Shown here piece by piece: positions 17,027 through 40,151 of a stretch of DNA of 57,051 nt (position 1 is its first letter; the number at the start of each line of letters is the position of its first letter). The DNA comes from an uncultured Candidatus Bathyarchaeia archaeon (lineage in GTDB: Archaea > Thermoproteota > Bathyarchaeia > 40CM-2-53-6 > DTGE01): positions 1-57,051 of the forward strand of contig CAYFVN010000234.1 of NCBI GenBank assembly GCA_964346575.1. Reading direction: 5' to 3'. The notes below the pieces were generated by a model, which saw nothing but the letters and a program-made list of their open reading frames with translations, made no database searches and was not told the DNA's origin. The translations under genes were made by a program, and so were the position numbers.

Positions 17027-17088
17027 AAATTACGGTCAATCGCGCCGCTAAATATTGCGAGCGCTATTTTTAAATTTTCTATATTTGA

Positions 17089-17199
17089 TGGGGCGGGCGG
17101 GATTTTCATGGTTTATTAGCCGTTTTGAACCCGCGATCTCCGACTTACCCTCCAACGGACCCGAGGCCGGGATCTTAGACCAAACTGGACCACCGCCCC
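17089..17199 (-). tRNA. tRNA-Pro (anticodon CGG) with two introns (canonical 37/38 and T-loop)
   Basis: Manual fold: acceptor GGGGCGG/CCGCCCC, discriminator A, anticodon stem CCGGC/GTCGG, loop CU-CGG-G then a 14-nt insert (17146..17159). The T stem GCGGG/CCCGC encloses 28 nt instead of 7, implying a ~21-nt intron at about 17103..17123. No encoded CCA. AT-rich TATA-like TTTTTATTAAA lies about 21-31 nt upstream (17220..17230). Confidence 0.8.
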
Positions 17200-17953
17200 C
17201 AATAGTTTTTAAGAGGTTGTTTAATAAAAATATCAAGGTTCCCCTATTAGGCTTGGTAATTTAAAATTTTAAGTTCGTTTCATGAGTCTAAATATCGGTT
17301 ATAGACCGATTTTTAAATATTCTACTGAAAAGATTGTTGATAAGAAAGCTTAAAAGAAAAAAATAGGGTTGGAGGAGGCTTTCCTTGGGTCTCCTATCTC
17401 TTGGACTAACTAATTGATATTTTCAATCAGGTAGCTTATAATCTGTAGTATTTCCAAGCTGTTTTTTCATAGTTCAAGAAGTAATCCCTCATCTCCTCCC
17501 CTAATAAAAGGTGAAGCTCTGTTTTGTTATTCCCATCATAGTCAAAAACAATGATCTTTCGCTGTAAAGTTTTGTCACTGAACCTTGTATATTACTTTCC
17601 CGCGTTTCATTCGAGGTCTATAACTTCTAGAGAGCACCAGAAGCTACTAATCGGACGCGCTTAGACTAAAATTTCTAATCAATATTTATATCAGTCAATT
17701 ACATTTGTTTTCTGAATATTAATCTGCCCTAACATATACTTTAGAATGAAATAGATGTCTGACAAAGAAAGATCGAGGATTCAAGGCGGTACACATTCAG
17801 AGCTATCAGTCTTTAGGGCCATGATAAGGATGATTGAATATTTCACGTGCGAGTCATGATAGCTAAAAACAACAAATGTCATCGAAATCCAAAACACGCC
17901 GTATTCAATATATTTAATTTTTTAAAGTAAGTTGATAGCTAATATTATAGGAT

Positions 17954-20188
17954 TTGAGTAGATTGAAGCGTTTGGAGGGGATGAGCTCTAAAATACTCGA
18001 CGCAGCCTCCTCATCTGTTCGCTTAAGCATTCTAAGATTGTTATCACATAAGGGGCAACTTCAATACACCGAGTTGATGTTCGCCGTGAACCTTGACCCA
18101 GTGAGAGATGCAGGTAAATTCGTTTACCATCTAAAGAGTTTAATAGACGTAGGTCTGCTCAAGCTTGACAAGAAGAGTAAGAAGTACTCATTAACGGAGT
18201 TAGGAGAGATAGTCGTAAAGTTCTCAAGAGACTTAGAAGAGTACTTGGCAGTAAAGAAGGGGAGGCTCTTCGTAAGGACATCGAAACTCGCCATTGAAGA
18301 GTTCGACAGATCGAAGATAGTAGATAGTCTAGCTAGAGAAGCAGGAGTACCCTTAGAATTAGCTAGAGATATAGCTGCTGAAGCTGAGGATCGTCTGATG
18401 AACACTAAAACGAGACATCTCACAGCACCTCTAATAAGAGAGTTCATAAACTTCCTTCTACTAGAAAAGGGGTTAGAGGAGTATCGTCATAGGCTGACTC
18501 GTCTAGGCATGCCCGTGTACGATGTAACCCAAGTCATCGAGGAAACTGGAAGGAGAGGCTCACCAGTATCCGCAGTGAAAGAGGCCGCCAGCTCCTCAGT
18601 CCTAAAAGAATATGTACTGCTTAAAGGCGTCCCAAGAGAAGTAGCAGATGCACACCTCTCCGGACTAATACACATAGACACAGCGGAGAGCTGGCTGCTC
18701 AAGCCTGAATCTATATCCTATGACCTGAGATCCTATCTAATTTCACCAGATCAGGTTAGGAAGATCCCTGATGACCTAAATGGCGTATTGAAGCTACTTG
18801 AGAAGATTTATAGGCGATCTACAAATGAAGTTACCAGCGGTGAAGTCCTTCCATTCCTAAACCTGATTCTTGCACCTTTTGTGGCGGGTTTAGAAATTAA
18901 TCTTGTAGAGAAGCTTCTAAGGATTTTCATCGAGGATTTGAATGAAGAGGCGCTTATCAATCCATTCACGCCTAGAGTCTCTATAGGCGTTTCTTTGAAG
19001 CTTCCTAGAGAACTCGAAAGTGAATCAGCCCCAAACCCTAGGGGGGAAGATACTACATATGGAGACTTTCATGAAGAAGCTGTTTTGTTGGCCTCCATCA
19101 TATTGAAGCAAGCCTATAGAATATCCAGTAGGATGCCTCTACTCAACCCATTATTGACTGTAAAGTTGAAGGGTGGAGATGAAGAATCGCTGGAGACTCT
19201 CAGCGCTTTAGAGGCTGCACATGGATCCATATATCTAGATTTTACGGGAGATACTGAAGCTGTATACCATGGAAATGGCATCCGCCTCTGCACAGGTTGG
19301 TCCGGAGATTGGCATGCAGACATCTTGAGGACAGGTCAGGCTGGAACTGTATTTCTGAACCTGTCTAGGATAGCTCTTGAGTCTAGAGGAAACTTCGAGC
19401 GTTTTAGGAAGATCTCAGACGACGCTGTACGATTGGCTGTGGAAGCACTAAAGGCTAAAAGGGCTTCCTTAATCGAGCATCTTCGTGGTGGACTTCTTCC
19501 TACTTTAAAAAGCTTTAACTTCTCAGTAGAGGATTCTCAGTATGGAATAGGGATACTAGGATTAAGTGAGGCTGCTTCCATCTATGCTGGATCCGCTATA
19601 GGTACAAGCGATAAGGCTTTGGAATTCTCCCTTAAAATTTTGAAATATCTAAGCGAGTTGACTTCTGCATCGTCCAAAGAGTTGGATATGCGTATAAATC
19701 TCGTACAGAAACCATGTGAAGAAGGTAGTTCACGCTTAGCCAAACTAGACTTGGAATCCTTTGGTAGGGGAGCCACGAAGTTTCAGGGTCTTAAAAGCAA
19801 CCCATACTACACTGATGTGCCTATAATACCTTCAAAATCGAATGTGCCTCTAGAAGCTCGAGGAGAGCTTGAAGGAAAGTTTCAACAGTACCTTGATGGC
19901 GGCCACCTATGCCTTTTCCGACTATCCGAAGCTGAGCCCAAAGCAATTGGGAGATTCTCTGCTAAACTTGAGTCTATGGATATACGCTTCGCAACATATT
20001 CCAAAGAGTTATCACACTGCAAAGCGTGTATGACCTTGACCCAAGGGCTTATACAAATATGTCCTATATGTGGATCGTCGTCGATTCAACGATATGGAGC
20101 TTCGTCGGCTCTGCTTAAACCTCTAAAGATATGGCCTTCTTCAAATGTTAAGGAGATGGATGAATGGGTTAGATATCCCATTAAGTAA
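17954..20188 (+). CDS. nrdD: class III (anaerobic) ribonucleoside-triphosphate reductase NrdD homolog with N-terminal wHTH and ATP-cone
   Basis: ArsR-like wHTH (LSILRLLSHKGQLQYTELMFAV...YSLTELGE), then an ATP-cone (LFVRTSKLAIEEFDRSKIVDSLAREAGVP...). NrdD-like blocks follow: RLCTGW...GQAGTVFLNLSRIALE, KPCEEGSSRLAKLD, PYYTDVPIIP and a C-terminal Zn ribbon CKAC-x12-CPIC. The glycyl-radical region reads IQRYGASS rather than RxxGY. Confidence 0.7.
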   Translation: MSRLKRLEGMSSKILDAASSSVRLSILRLLSHKGQLQYTELMFAVNLDPVRDAGKFVYHLKSLIDVGLLKLDKKSKKYSLTELGEIVVKFSRDLEEYLAVKKGRLFVRTSKLAIEEFDRSKIVDSLAREAGVPLELARDIAAEAEDRLMNTKTRHLTAPLIREFINFLLLEKGLEEYRHRLTRLGMPVYDVTQVIEETGRRGSPVSAVKEAASSSVLKEYVLLKGVPREVADAHLSGLIHIDTAESWLLKPESISYDLRSYLISPDQVRKIPDDLNGVLKLLEKIYRRSTNEVTSGEVLPFLNLILAPFVAGLEINLVEKLLRIFIEDLNEEALINPFTPRVSIGVSLKLPRELESESAPNPRGEDTTYGDFHEEAVLLASIILKQAYRISSRMPLLNPLLTVKLKGGDEESLETLSALEAAHGSIYLDFTGDTEAVYHGNGIRLCTGWSGDWHADILRTGQAGTVFLNLSRIALESRGNFERFRKISDDAVRLAVEALKAKRASLIEHLRGGLLPTLKSFNFSVEDSQYGIGILGLSEAASIYAGSAIGTSDKALEFSLKILKYLSELTSASSKELDMRINLVQKPCEEGSSRLAKLDLESFGRGATKFQGLKSNPYYTDVPIIPSKSNVPLEARGELEGKFQQYLDGGHLCLFRLSEAEPKAIGRFSAKLESMDIRFATYSKELSHCKACMTLTQGLIQICPICGSSSIQRYGASSALLKPLKIWPSSNVKEMDEWVRYPIK

Positions 20189-20370
20189 AATGCATGAATG
20201 TTAAATATCGACAAAACTAAAAAATGTTGAGAATTACTCCTATTAGAAAACCAAAAATCCCTGATATGAGAACTATGATCAATGTTTTCTTGAAATCATT
20301 TATGACATCTCGAGTTTCATTCCCTCTTAATGTCATTCTAGTCTCTTCCATATATTCAGACGCTATATTT

Positions 20371-20417
20371 ATATAACAGTGTTATATGAATATTTGTATG
20401 TAACATACGTATGTTAC
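20371..20417. repeat. two adjacent perfect palindromes in AT-rich intergenic DNA
   Basis: ATATAACA-g-TGTTATAT at 20371..20387 and GTAACATAC|GTATGTTAC (an 18-bp perfect palindrome) at 20400..20417. Confidence 0.85.
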
Positions 20418-20784
20418 TTTATTTATTTTTTTAAAATAGCAGCAACATAAGCAAACAATATTCCTTCCCATATATAGAAAAAATATGTAGGGTACGAACG
20501 TGCCTAAGAATAAATGCAGCTCATAAAATTAATTCTGTTCTTTGAATGAATTTTCTTATGATTCAAAGTGGTATTATACTATACGCTCATAGTTGCATTC
20601 GGAAAGCTTATCTTTCAGTTTTTCTAGATGCCTGCAGTCTTACCTTGTCACATATATCTTTACTTGCTCCCGATCTATATAATAACTAGAATAAATTTCA
20701 ATGTCTTCTATAAGTTTCATAAGGAAAATTTACAGCCTATCCTTATTAATATATTATAGGCTCGCGTTAAAAGTTACCGAGATA

Positions 20785-21093
20785 TTATTTTTGTTTGACC
20801 TTGTCCAAATCTTTCTTTATACCATCCAGTGTATACTTTACCAAAGCTGCATAAAAACTTAAACTCGACAAAAATAGAAATAATACAATAATAAGTCCAA
20901 CGATAAGAAATTCATTTAAATAGAAAATTTCTGATATTCTATTCTGCATAATATAATCATTAATTAATTTTATTTCAATTTTAAAATAAGTCGATAGTAC
21001 TAATCCTGCAATAATAATCCATAATATTGAAAATATAAATCCTATAATTAAACCACAAAAAGCTATCCAATAAGATTTTACCCAGCTAGACAT
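20785..21093 (-). CDS. hypothetical small membrane protein
   Basis: 102 aa with two or three strongly hydrophobic segments and a Lys-rich C-terminus. Lies in a ~28% GC island. No family recognised. Confidence 0.4.
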   Translation of the reverse strand: MSSWVKSYWIAFCGLIIGFIFSILWIIIAGLVLSTYFKIEIKLINDYIMQNRISEIFYLNEFLIVGLIIVLFLFLSSLSFYAALVKYTLDGIKKDLDKVKQK

Positions 21094-21309
21094 ATTCTAA
21101 TTATTTTACATTGGTTACTATTAAACTTAATATTTAATTTAGCTTACGTTGAAGAATTTATATGGGGATTAAGAAAGTCAATAACAAACGCCCAATGGAT
21201 ATCTTTTCAACTCGCTCTGAAGAAGATCGCTGGATTTTAGAAAAAAAGAAAGGATGCACTCTAAAAGTTGTGACATGCCTTATAAAAAAGGAGGGAATGT
21301 TTACCGCTA

Positions 21310-21498
21310 TTATGTTGTCTGGTCTTCGATCTCGGCGGCTGGGGCGTTCGTTTTAACCGACTCTATACCGTTCATACAAGCGGCCTTGCTCGTATAGGCC
21401 TCGCTCACAGCGATGATCTCCATATTTGCAGCCCTCAACCTGAAGCGGAACTGTCCGCTAGTATCCTTATAGACTTCAAACTTTGCAGGCATATTCAT
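21310..21498 (-). CDS. YegP/DUF1508 (UPF0339) family protein
   Basis: KFEVYKDTSGQFRFRLRAANMEIIAVSEAYTSKAACMNGIESVKTNA matches the YegP repeat consensus (F.iykd..g.yRFrLkA.NGeiia.Se.Y.sk......I.svk.na). Confidence 0.7.
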   Translation of the reverse strand: MNMPAKFEVYKDTSGQFRFRLRAANMEIIAVSEAYTSKAACMNGIESVKTNAPAAEIEDQTT

Positions 21499-21854
21499 CG
21501 AAGCATAATATTACCTTAACTCACTTAAAAATATGTCACTGCCTCCAGTAAGAAAGCGACAAGGAATACGTCATTTCGGTTATACTATCCTATCCCCTTC
21601 TTTGGGGATCTATCCCTAACACTCTGTTCAGCTGTGCAAGTAGGGGTTCCAATCGAATGCAGAACTCGTCTACGGCCTTTTTGTATTCAGGCAGGTCTTT
21701 CTTTATTGAAGGTGAGATCCTCTATAATTTCCGGATAGGCTGTGATTCGTTCTACTTGTGGTTCCTTAACCTTTTTTAGTTTTCTAAATCTTATGTGAAT
21801 GGCATATAGGTTGATTCACGGTTAAATGGATAAATCGTTTGGATGTGAAAATCG

Positions 21855-22667
21855 ATGAAGATAGCTCTAATTCAGCGACACGCTACCCTGAACAGGAAGG
21901 ATAATATTATTCGTGGAATAAAAGCATTAGAGGAGGCAGTTTCTCATGGAGCCAAATTAGTAGTTTATCCTGAATTATCCTTCAACTTGTTTCTTCCACA
22001 ATATCCCGCTTCTAAGAGAACTCTTAACTTGGCTGAGGCAATACCAGGTCCTACGACGAAGATATTCTCTGAAAAAGCAGCTGAGTTGAATGTCGCGGTA
22101 GTTCTTAATATCTTTGAAAAAGAAGGTCGGCTAACCTATGATTCTTCTCCTGTAATAGATGCGGATGGGAGGATAGTAGGGAAGACTAGGATGGTTCACA
22201 TACTTGAGGCTCCCTTTTTCCAAGAAAAGGAATATTACTCACCGGGTAATCTTGGAGCAGGGGTATTCGACACGGCGGCGGGAAGGATTGGGATAGCTAT
22301 CTGCTATGACCGTCATTTCCCTGAGTATATGAGAGCTCTGGCTATTAAGGGTGCTGATTTGGTCGTGGTTCCTCAAGCAGGAGTCGTTGATGAGTGGCCT
22401 CATGGAATATTTGAAGCTGAACTTCAAATTGCCGCCTTCCAGAATGGTTATTTTACAGCATTAGTCAACAGAGTGGGTAAAGAGGACAATCTAACCTTTG
22501 CAGGGGAATCTTTCGTCACCGACCCTGAAGGGCAAGTTATTGCTCGTGCCCCAAGAGGAAAAGATCACATTCTCTACGCTAATATAGACTTCAAGAAACT
22601 CAAGAGATGCCCCGCCAAAAAACATTTCCTGTTAGATCGAAGACCAGACATTTACCCCATTCTTTAG
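21855..22667 (+). CDS. carbon-nitrogen hydrolase (nitrilase superfamily)
   Basis: MKIALIQ..., catalytic Glu in VVYPELS, and catalytic Cys in GIAICYDRHFPE. 270 aa. Confidence 0.85.
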   Translation: MKIALIQRHATLNRKDNIIRGIKALEEAVSHGAKLVVYPELSFNLFLPQYPASKRTLNLAEAIPGPTTKIFSEKAAELNVAVVLNIFEKEGRLTYDSSPVIDADGRIVGKTRMVHILEAPFFQEKEYYSPGNLGAGVFDTAAGRIGIAICYDRHFPEYMRALAIKGADLVVVPQAGVVDEWPHGIFEAELQIAAFQNGYFTALVNRVGKEDNLTFAGESFVTDPEGQVIARAPRGKDHILYANIDFKKLKRCPAKKHFLLDRRPDIYPIL

Positions 22668-22828
22668 AAACTTTAGAATAAAACTCTAAGGATATACCTT
22701 TCCGTGATCTCATTTCGATTTTACTGATCAGTAATATCACATTCTAGAGGGGATTGGTTAGGTACATCTTTGATAGCATAAACTAACTAAACACCTTACA
22801 ACATTACAGGATATTCCATTGAGTAAAT

Positions 22829-23806
<978 letters not shown>

Positions 23807-39116: not shown

Positions 39117-40151
39117 ATGAAACGAAACGATGATGAAGCTGTGAGAAGTAGCGTTGAGATTCAGGATAAGCCTAAGTTACTTTCAAGAGTAAAGCGGTCA
39201 GACCCGGACAATTTATTCCGTCAGATCCTGAAGAGACAGAAGTATCAGCTCGTAGGCCGCCACTCCGCAGTTAAGAAGTGTCGTTGGCTGCATAAGAGCC
39301 TAACCGAAGACCTCCACTGCTATAAGCAGGAGTTCTACGGCGTAGAGAGTCACCGATGCCTCCAGATGGCACCATGCCTCAAATGTAATTTCCAATGTCT
39401 CTTCTGTTGGAGGACCCATCCAAAGGATTTAGGGGTTAAGGATACAACTAGAATCGAAGGCTGGGAAGACCCAGGAAGCATTGTTGATGAGTCTGTGAAG
39501 GCGCAGAGAAGGATACTATCTGGATATAAATCTCACGTCCTAGACGGGAAGCTCGAGGAATCCAAGTATTTAGAAGCGCTGAACCCTCGACATGCGGCTA
39601 TAAGCCTCGATGGAGAGACCACGTTATACCCTATGATAGGCGGGCTTATAAGTGAGTATTCTGGTAGAGGATTCACCACGTTCCTAGTTACCAATGGCAG
39701 TAGCCCGAAAACCTTGAACAATCTGGAAGAGGAGCCCACCCAGCTCTACCTGTCCTTATACGCGCCTGACGAGGAAACCTTCAAGGCCTTATGTAAACCC
39801 CTGAACATGAAGTTCTGGAAAAGCATTAGGGAGTCACTGATATCCATAAGGAACTTTAAATCTCCGACGGTTTTGAGGTTGACACTGGTTAAAGGCTTCA
39901 ACATGAAGAATCCCGAAGGATACGTCAAACTTCTAAGGGATGCAGAGCCTACGTATATAGAGGCTAAAGCCTACATGTACGTAGGATACTCTAGGACACG
40001 GCTTACATACTCCGCGATGCCAAGCTACAATGAGGTGGAGGAGTTCGCTGAAACTTTAACTGAAGAACTTGGATACCGAACCATAGCCTCGTCCGAGGAC
40101 AGTAGAGTCGTACTGTTAAGCAGGCTTAAAACACCTAAGAGACTAAGATAG
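39117..40151 (+). CDS. taw1: tRNA 4-demethylwyosine synthase (radical SAM, Taw1/TYW1)
   Basis: GRHSAVKKCRWLHKSL...YKQEFYGVESHRCLQMAP...CNFQCLFCWR (radical-SAM cluster plus the auxiliary-cluster Cys). Confidence 0.9.
   Translation: MKRNDDEAVRSSVEIQDKPKLLSRVKRSDPDNLFRQILKRQKYQLVGRHSAVKKCRWLHKSLTEDLHCYKQEFYGVESHRCLQMAPCLKCNFQCLFCWRTHPKDLGVKDTTRIEGWEDPGSIVDESVKAQRRILSGYKSHVLDGKLEESKYLEALNPRHAAISLDGETTLYPMIGGLISEYSGRGFTTFLVTNGSSPKTLNNLEEEPTQLYLSLYAPDEETFKALCKPLNMKFWKSIRESLISIRNFKSPTVLRLTLVKGFNMKNPEGYVKLLRDAEPTYIEAKAYMYVGYSRTRLTYSAMPSYNEVEEFAETLTEELGYRTIASSEDSRVVLLSRLKTPKRLR

Follow-up and report, generated by a model that had tools for sequence, protein, structure and literature searches.

The open reading frame (ORF) at positions 17954..20188 on the plus strand of a 57,051-nucleotide stretch from an uncultured Candidatus Bathyarchaeia archaeon (contig CAYFVN010000234.1; the whole stretch is called the window below) encodes an ArsR/SmtB-like winged helix-turn-helix (wHTH) and an ATP-cone fused to a homolog of NrdD, the class III ribonucleotide reductase (RNR). 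Judged from the alignment with solved and intact NrdDs, the protein (the query) is incapable of ribonucleotide reduction, and the loss of catalysis is shown across the query and its family. We propose, with a probability of about 0.6, that this catalytically dead NrdD is a DNA-binding regulator tied to deoxynucleotide and pyrimidine metabolism, for which we infer DNA binding, target genes and nucleotide sensing.

The radical and substrate residues of NrdD are replaced

We aligned 119 full-length relatives, 57 of which make up alignment A1, and compared the A1 profile with solved NrdDs, with 114 representatives at 50% identity and with intact NrdD paralogs from related genomes. Residue counts refer to 28 dead members and 16 intact paralogs, or to the 119 family members where stated. 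The positions concerned were located by alignment as follows, with T. maritima (Tm) numbering where given.

18551..18583, plus strand: position of the NxN substrate flap, motif absent
18671..18682, plus strand: remnant of the HxHD triphosphate motif, H240-I-D242-T243
18710..18712, plus strand: Ser253, at the position of the beta-A catalytic Cys (Tm C125)
19277..19285, plus strand: tip of the finger loop, G442-I443-R444, aligned to the canonical M-G-C-R / C-C-R
20099..20113, plus strand: remnant of the glycyl-radical loop, A716-S-S-A719-L720, aligned to R-I-V-G-Y (T. maritima G621)

In RNRs of class III the finger-loop motif, MGCR or MCCR, bears the thiyl-radical Cys (PMC9669993). The query loop reads N-G-I-R, with I443 at the thiyl position, where most of the family has Leu; the dead family as a whole reads T-G-[LISVMF]-R and the intact neighbouring paralogs QCCR or GCR. 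The preliminary description of this DNA had listed several NrdD-like blocks as kept, among them one reading LCTGW. The fold and the blocks are indeed retained, but the Cys of that block (C446) is not the thiyl Cys: it lies three residues past the thiyl position and is not conserved, being Ser, Asp, Thr or Asn in other members. The beta-A Cys, which is present in 92.6% of class III RNRs and in 16 of 16 intact paralogs, is Ser in the query and Glu in 111 of the 119 family members.

The glycyl-radical loop reads SR[IV]TGY in the intact paralogs, and here the query has Ala for Gly, Leu for Tyr and Ala for Arg, so that A-S-S-A-L does not match the C-terminal fingerprint R-[VI]-x-G-[FWY] of active class III RNR. 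The motif had been described as non-consensus and placed at IQRYGASS. Non-consensus it is, but the segment that aligns is the one listed above, and G715 falls one place before the Arg position. Among the 119 family members the Gly position is occupied by Ala (50), Ser (35), Tyr (22), Asn (6), Phe (3) and Gly (2).

This distribution raises the question of aminoacyl-radical enzymes (AAREs), members of the superfamily of glycyl-radical enzymes (GREs) with Ala, Ser or Thr in place of the radical Gly; in 2024 some GRE homologs of this kind were shown to form stable radicals (PMC11528403). By analogy, the Ala of the query, and the Ala or Ser of 85 of the 119 relatives, would bear a backbone radical and support a new radical reaction. 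However, in AAREs the fingerprint R-V-x-[AST]-[FWY] is maintained, together with the catalytic Cys, an aromatic residue next to the radical position and an activating enzyme encoded nearby (PMC11528403); in the dead-NrdD family the fingerprint is degenerate and the other three are lacking. The Gly position can also be Tyr, Asn or Phe, the next residue is non-aromatic, the Arg is lost in the query's subclade, the catalytic Cys is absent, and the genomes hold no GRE-type activase. Moreover, the members from Nitrosopumilaceae have no loop and end at the zinc ribbon. An AARE-like activity is therefore very improbable.

The residues that contact the substrate and the effector are replaced as well. 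The NxN flap (defined in PMC11226230) is N-A-N in 16 of 16 intact paralogs and is missing from the query and from all 28 dead members. In the HxHD triphosphate motif (PMC4493059, PMC11226230) the query has lost the second His and the Asp, and the second His is retained in 1 of 28 dead members. The Arg, Gln and aromatic residue of loop 2 that read the substrate base (Tm R221, Q224, Y227) and the Gln of the effector (specificity) site (Tm Q207/Q210 region) are conserved in intact NrdD and replaced in the query and the dead family. Overall, NxN, HxHD, the loop-2 Arg/Gln/Phe and the specificity-site Gln are retained in 0-3 of 28 dead members versus 15-16 of 16 intact paralogs. Every Cys-bearing finger loop among the 114 representatives co-occurs with SRITGY and with ATP-cones only, and every wHTH-bearing sequence lacks both the finger-loop Cys and SRITGY. 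Because the finger-loop Cys, the beta-A Cys, the radical Gly-Tyr pair, NxN, HxHD, loop 2 and the specificity Gln are all replaced, the alignment indicates that the protein is not an RNR. In the comparison with solved NrdDs, which had been suggested with the preliminary description, the thiyl Cys, the Gly-radical loop and the beta-A Cys were thus all found to be replaced.

The activase is missing where only the dead form is present

The full NrdD fold and the zinc ribbon are retained, and the public annotation of the family is 'anaerobic ribonucleoside-triphosphate reductase'. One could therefore envisage a self-regulating class III RNR that is still active, has gained a DNA-binding domain and uses non-canonical radical residues, and whose activase, NrdG, lies in the missing third of the metagenome-assembled genome (MAG). 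Since the query genome is a 1.5-Mb MAG that is 67% complete, the activase test was carried by relatives, 22 of which were tested for NrdG. In the query MAG itself the profile search gave no NrdG match above cut-off, the best scores being 50 bits for TIGR02495 (cut-off 131) and 27 bits for TIGR02491 (cut-off 126). The window holds no NrdG-type activase, as the preliminary description had stated; its sole radical-SAM ORF (39117..40151) is TYW1. This ORF, also the only one of its kind within 20 kb downstream of the gene, gives a weak and spurious NrdG2 match at 39.6 kb, which was rejected in favour of TYW1 (4-demethylwyosine synthase) at 386 bits.

In the relatives, NrdG2 scored above cut-off only in genomes with a second NrdD match or with intact NrdD alone, and all six of these second paralogs that were examined proved intact. 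The single exception to the pattern is one 84%-complete genome. NrdG is absent from nine 91-100% complete genomes that have the dead form only, including three of the query's own family (G028, G100, G115). Neither an intact Gly motif nor nrdG elsewhere in the genome, the combination expected of an ordinary RNR, was seen: nrdG was found neither in the MAG nor in these nine relatives.

An active RNR is also contradicted by the replacement of all three radical/redox positions and of all substrate-contact motifs, by the presence of members in obligate aerobes, and by the NrdD equivalog model of NCBIfam (TIGR02487), for which the query scores 184 bits, far under the curated cut-off of 326. These results make an active enzyme scarcely credible. 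The earlier suggestion of a true RNR that autoregulates fails on the same grounds, namely the loss of the radical and substrate residues, the lack of an activase in near-complete genomes with the dead form only, and the members in aerobes.

The search for other RNR classes did find a class II RNR in the query genome, as a fragment that has a canonical K-R-D-G cone and is truncated where its contig stops (G000 contig C133:1-1353, minus strand). In its promoter, several CACAC/GTGTG repeats surround the sequence AAGATTTTTTAAACG. Of 26 relatives, 24 have a class II RNR, and the remaining two have nrdD and nrdG. A second NrdD in the genome was considered and rejected: the only other Pfam NRDD match (L002, G000 contig C131:59-1585, minus strand) is a 508-residue membrane protein with several CxxC zinc ribbons, which passes the Pfam cut-off barely, through the ribbon alone, and can mislead automatic annotation.

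The protein is a well-folded fusion of three modules

All three modules of the fusion, as first described, were found by Pfam.

17954..20188, plus strand: whole ORF, wHTH + ATP-cone + NrdD-like pseudoenzyme, 744 residues from TTG 17954
17996..18238, plus strand: ArsR/SmtB-like wHTH, residues 15-95 (Pfam DUF7347, 34.7 bits, and HTH_45)
18272..18484, plus strand: ATP-cone, 'VRTS' variant, residues 107-177 (Pfam PF03477)
18578..20158, plus strand: NrdD-like ten-stranded barrel and C-terminal domain, catalytically dead (Pfam NRDD)
20018..20071, plus strand: retained zinc ribbon, C689-x2-C692-x10-C703-x2-C706 (family alignment)

Public gene calls place the start at ATG 17981, which gives a protein of 735 residues. 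A third candidate is TTG 17963, where the peptide L-K-x-L-E is conserved among close relatives; the comparison with these suggests that TTG 17963 may be the true start. The wHTH lies 3' of every candidate start and is found in more than 1500 homologs, which disposes of the concern that it is an artefact of a wrong upstream start. In addition to DUF7347 (cut-off 27.6 bits) and HTH_45, the wHTH matches HTH_20 and HTH_5. The ATP-cone of the query scores 22.9 bits, slightly under the Pfam cut-off of 25.8, and those of relatives score 31-37 bits. The NRDD match covers residues 209-735 (E 3e-51). The four Cys of the zinc ribbon are invariant across the family, and their true spacing is CxxC-x10-CxxC rather than the CxxC-x12-CxxC first given.

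An AlphaFold2 model built on A1 had a mean pLDDT of 86.9, with most of the barrel above 90. The best Foldseek matches, with E values as low as 1e-26, were the NrdDs of T. maritima, P. copri, S. thermophilus and T4, and the target-normalised TM score to solved NrdDs (4coj, 4col, 8p2s) was 0.70-0.76. The model has both the ten-stranded alpha/beta barrel and the C-terminal four-Cys zinc ribbon of the class III fold. At the N-terminus, a region for which structure prediction had been recommended, it shows helices at 3-9, 12-24, 29-35 and 44-56 and a beta wing at 60-71, a topology that agrees with a wHTH. Because full-length frames are widespread, the pLDDT is 87 and the fold is that of NrdD, the gene is not a pseudogene, and the model describes the protein as a well-folded, conserved pseudoenzyme rather than the product of a decaying gene.

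Conservation is highest in the ATP-cone and the putative DNA-binding head

The N-terminal profile of the family matches the ArsR regulators 6j05 (E 5e-4) and 1y0u in the PDB. The recognition-helix signature usual for ArsR, xHLxxLxxAGL, is present, and both the recognition helix (...RDAGKFVYHLKSL) and the stretch P40-x-x-D-A-G-x-F-V-Y-H-L are invariant in the family. By these sequence features the wHTH is of the ArsR/SmtB type and a putative DNA-binding head. The closest active relatives have two ATP-cones, and the wHTH sits in the place of the outer one.

ATP-cones are four-helix domains with a beta-hairpin lid. In the remaining cone, the canonical lid V-x-K-R-D-G reads V-R-T-S, with T-S in place of the K-R dyad and an Arg before it; the Glu and Lys-Ile positions are retained despite this change. 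The K-R dyad contacts phosphates in P. copri NrdD. The 'VRTS' variant and the whole linker (...YRHKLTRLGMPVYDV) also occur in intact Bathyarchaeial NrdDs, and 27-28 of 28 dead members retain the cone and linker residues conserved there. Since the cone matches that of the active paralogs residue for residue, whatever it does in the enzyme it would also do here.

Column conservation falls from the cone (0.86) through the wHTH (0.78) and the N-terminal part of NrdD (0.65) to the barrel (0.57). In the subclade of the query (relatives 61-66% identical), the barrel residues E244, E287, C448, P462 and R707 have been lost, which the rest of the dead family keeps. All 28 of the subclade-specific losses lie outside the wHTH, where no family-conserved position is altered. 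Because the barrel decays further while the wHTH is unchanged, selection appears from these alignments to act mainly on the wHTH-cone module.

This uneven pattern bears on the idea of a barrel that has gained a new pocket for a ligand other than a nucleotide, or some new activity not based on radicals, so that the wHTH regulator would sense a different metabolite. The canonical nucleotide sites are lost, and the dead family has conserved barrel polars of its own: the beta-A Glu, W-E-x-D-C-x-R-T-G following the finger loop, and R-S-S where the Gly loop once was. However, since family-specific barrel residues have been lost again in the query's subclade, with the wHTH and the cone intact, a barrel pocket is inessential there, and the gene neighbourhoods described below indicate nucleotide metabolism. 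We consider such a ligand-sensing barrel quite unlikely.

The family extends through the phylum to aerobic ammonia oxidisers

With the A1 profile, a full-length open frame was found in most of 151 Bathyarchaeia genomes, and a few families have intact NrdD only. A profile of the wHTH alone (A2) detected fused frames of 535-850 residues in 160 of 251 genomes of the phylum. Carriers outside the class include Nitrosopumilaceae, namely Nitrosotenuis (among them the complete genome of a named strain), Nitrosopumilus and Nitrosopelagicus, all of which are aerobic ammonia oxidisers. Their proteins (about 700 residues) end directly after the zinc ribbon and have no radical loop at all, which is independent evidence against any glycyl-radical function. 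In a Nitrosotenuis-type genome (L183) and in loci L188-L225 a shortened member stands directly upstream of class II RNR, and the Nitrosopumilaceae spacer before nrdJ carries two copies of AAATCTGAAA.

The bacterial RNR repressor NrdR was found in only 6 of 61 Bathyarchaeia genomes, and its model TIGR00244 had no match in the query genome. Contigs deposited as Methylomirabilota, Acidiferrales or 'bacterium' MAGs (L117, L125, L170) carry the archaeal gene, 38-42% identical to the query in the best tblastn segment; they probably belong to Bathyarchaeia and were mis-binned.

The gene is linked to RNR and pyrimidine genes

In all ten genomes with a second paralog that were examined, an intact nrdD comes directly downstream of the dead gene, in the same orientation, and genome-survey coordinates gave about 20 such pairs sharing a contig versus 4-5 separated ones. 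The dead gene and nrdD are followed by pyrB, which is convergent, and then by pyrI; in loci that have lost nrdD, pyrB comes immediately next to the dead gene. Adjacency to pyrB/pyrI was seen in about 26 loci, and two further lineages have an aspartate/ornithine carbamoyltransferase gene in divergent orientation to it. Nitrosotenuis and one Bathyarchaeia family (G005) have a class II RNR immediately downstream on the same strand. The window keeps the ancestral order of Lhr helicase, metallophosphoesterase, ..., dead nrdD, ..., pyrB, pyrI. That the gene stays close to RNR and pyrimidine genes over so deep a divergence speaks for a function in nucleotide metabolism.

The same linkage is compatible with a non-catalytic partner or scaffold, either a regulatory subunit paired with the active RNR (the nrdD or nrdJ product) or a tether of nucleotide enzymes to DNA or chromatin, in which the wHTH makes non-specific DNA contacts or protein contacts. 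Dead paralogs often regulate their active relatives, many genomes have the gene as a tandem neighbour of intact nrdD or nrdJ, the surfaces of linker and cone are identical to those of the active paralog, and no shared operator was found. However, the family persists with a conserved wHTH in genomes without nrdD, as in the query's order, and class II dimer geometry differs (PMC9669993), which makes heterodimers with the class II enzyme unlikely. In addition, the invariant recognition helix and the gene-specific promoter box described next fit sequence-specific binding better. We judge a partner or scaffold role to be unlikely.

The promoter carries patterns that fit autoregulation

17909..17926, plus strand: promoter region, with the TATA-like box TTTTTTAAA (T6A3) at 17918-17926

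The T6A3 box lies 27-36 nt before the candidate TTG starts. Orthologs share the conserved box ACTCTA-N-TTTTTTAAA(C/G), and the query reads ATATTTAAT upstream instead. The 16-mer ACTCTNNTTTTTTAAA has 14 copies in 61 genomes of the order, 12 of them at ortholog promoters, and a reversed control pattern has 1 copy. One family (f3, L041, genome G068) has a perfect palindrome, CCACTCTAA-N4-TTAGAGTGG with the spacer AAAA, just downstream of a TTTATAAA box; within it lies the ACTCTAA that other families have ahead of the TATA box. The Nitrosopumilaceae promoter carries repeated CTGATC, at 10 per kb versus 0.3 per kb in coding sequence. These patterns would fit autoregulation and are no proof of it. 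In the query, an exact 10-bp direct repeat, TGATAGCTAA, flanks the TATA box at 17857..17866 and 17933..17942, its only copies in the window.

Three of these elements were tried as marks of a regulon and rejected. The TTTTTTAAA box also stands before adk, purA, nrdJ, aIF5A, ABCE1 and other genes, and looks like a general strong TATA box. The 16-mer ACTCTNNTTTTTTAAA is unique to orthologs of the gene itself and does not occur at nrdJ or pyr genes. The repeat TGATAGCTAA has six exact copies genome-wide, about the number expected by chance, and the others are not near genes of nucleotide metabolism.

A mechanism is proposed for a dead NrdD as a DNA-binding regulator

The idea that a dead RNR had been reused as a transcription factor sensing deoxynucleoside triphosphates (dNTPs) or ATP was one of the two readings first offered for this gene. 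The residues bear out that the enzyme is dead, and a transcription factor is plausible given the ArsR-type wHTH and the linkage to nrdD, nrdJ or pyrBI; the sensing part would be the more doubtful one, as the specificity and active sites are lost and the cone reads T-S. In the mechanism that we propose, the barrel would act as a dimerisation or scaffold module, NrdD being a dimer, and would present two wHTH heads to DNA. The cone and the linker could relay a nucleotide-dependent or other conformational signal to these heads. The targets would be the gene's own promoter and neighbouring nucleotide genes, that is, nrdD or nrdJ where adjacent, and pyrBI. Because the query genome has no nrdD or nrdG, its candidate targets would be the gene itself, pyrB/pyrI 2.6 kb downstream and the class II RNR encoded on another contig. 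The weakest step of this mechanism is nucleotide sensing, because the barrel has lost its two canonical nucleotide sites and the cone has no K-R dyad.

Several observations weigh against a regulator of nucleotide genes. In the window the gene is parted from pyrB by a 2.6-kb insert (20189..22828), and the linkage may in part be an ancestral gene order left by tandem duplication of nrdD. No operator common to other genes was found. ACTCTA is absent from the query's own promoter, from the pyrB-pyrI spacer and from the upstream region of nrdJ, and it is unenriched upstream of nrdJ in relatives (0.87 versus 0.5-0.6 per kb). The T6A3 box also precedes unrelated housekeeping genes, and the conserved promoter box may simply be a strong TFB recognition element (BRE)/TATA region. 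The cone is without the canonical K-R dyad, so that ATP/dATP sensing is unproven. Finally, 5 of the 6 NrdR-bearing Bathyarchaeia genomes, all of one family (f15: G008, G032, G038, G067, G075), have an above-cut-off NrdR together with the wHTH-dead-NrdD. Because the two co-occur in these five genomes, they are not simple substitutes for one another.

In a wider form of this proposal, the family would be a phylum-wide archaeal transcription factor, from Bathyarchaeia to Nitrosopumilaceae, that derives from a dead RNR and controls RNR and pyrimidine genes in the role that NrdR has in bacteria, with the 'VRTS' cone as sensor and the barrel as dimer scaffold. We put this forward tentatively, at somewhat less than even odds.

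The protein resembles known systems in part

Class III NrdD of archaea, which has one or two N-terminal ATP-cones and occurs beside the family in Bathyarchaeia, shares with the query the ten-stranded barrel, the zinc ribbon, the 'VRTS' inner cone, the linker and the blocks DAHxSGxIH, HDLR, LNLPRIA, RLAxLD and YYT. The query differs in its lost radical, substrate and specificity residues, in the lack of an activase, in the wHTH that replaces the outer cone, and in the occurrence of its family in aerobes. NrdR (PMC9110341, PMC12176259) likewise joins a DNA-binding module to an ATP-cone and is found near RNR genes, and so offers a functional analogy for a nucleotide-responsive RNR regulator. However, NrdR has an N-terminal zinc ribbon and about 150 residues, whereas the query has an ArsR-type wHTH, no K-R dyad and a dead enzyme body of 530 residues, and no tandem operator of the NrdR-box type was found.

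A search of the literature found no description of a wHTH-NrdD fusion, of an NrdD pseudoenzyme, of DUF7347, or of NrdD in Bathyarchaeia or Nitrosopumilus. The two large phylogenies of RNRs use the MGCR/MCCR motif to sort class III enzymes, and such proteins are mentioned in neither.

Enzyme-derived transcription factors include MocR/GabR, in which a wHTH is joined to an inactive aminotransferase-fold domain, and the ROK repressors. Like the query, they have an N-terminal wHTH and a full-size, non-catalytic enzyme fold that serves dimerisation and effector sensing; they differ from it in that the enzyme fold of the query is the glycyl-radical RNR barrel. To our knowledge, this barrel has not been described in an enzyme-derived transcription factor. 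Regulators of this general kind are thus already known, and a dead glycyl-radical RNR in that role would be a new variant.

More than 1500 sequence clusters of the family are labelled 'anaerobic ribonucleoside-triphosphate reductase' in databases, and as a result metabolic reconstructions of Bathyarchaeia and of aerobic ammonia oxidisers wrongly credit these organisms with class III RNR and anaerobic dNTP synthesis. NrdR is rare in archaea, and a conserved, putatively DNA-binding protein that derives from the enzyme and is encoded beside nrdD, nrdJ or pyrBI is a concrete candidate for the control of RNR expression there. The family also illustrates a path of tandem duplication, loss of radical chemistry and a domain swap of the outer ATP-cone for a wHTH, with intermediates side by side in living genomes.

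Other features of the locus

The insert downstream of the gene and the gene that follows it comprise three annotated features.

20785..21093, minus strand: small membrane-like ORF, in the insert
21855..22667: carbon-nitrogen hydrolase, in the insert
22829..23797, minus strand: pyrB, 2.6 kb downstream of the dead gene

In the closest relatives the insert is missing and pyrB directly abuts the dead gene.

Rfam and ARAGORN gave no match in the 930-bp gap upstream of the gene. At about 17088..17199 on the minus strand there is a tRNA-Pro(CGG)-like gene that is interrupted twice, by a short insert after position 37 and by another in the T-loop, and that ARAGORN calls as tRNA-Pro(cgg) only once both inserts are removed in silico. 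In several families these 120 nt of tRNA-like sequence also precede the orthologous gene, with 75-90% conservation. The following stretch of about 700 bp (17205..17905) has no ORF of at least 60 residues, no Rfam match and no similarity in relatives, where a mere 150 bp or so separates the tRNA from the gene; the stretch has the look of an insertion specific to this lineage, placed between tRNA and promoter.

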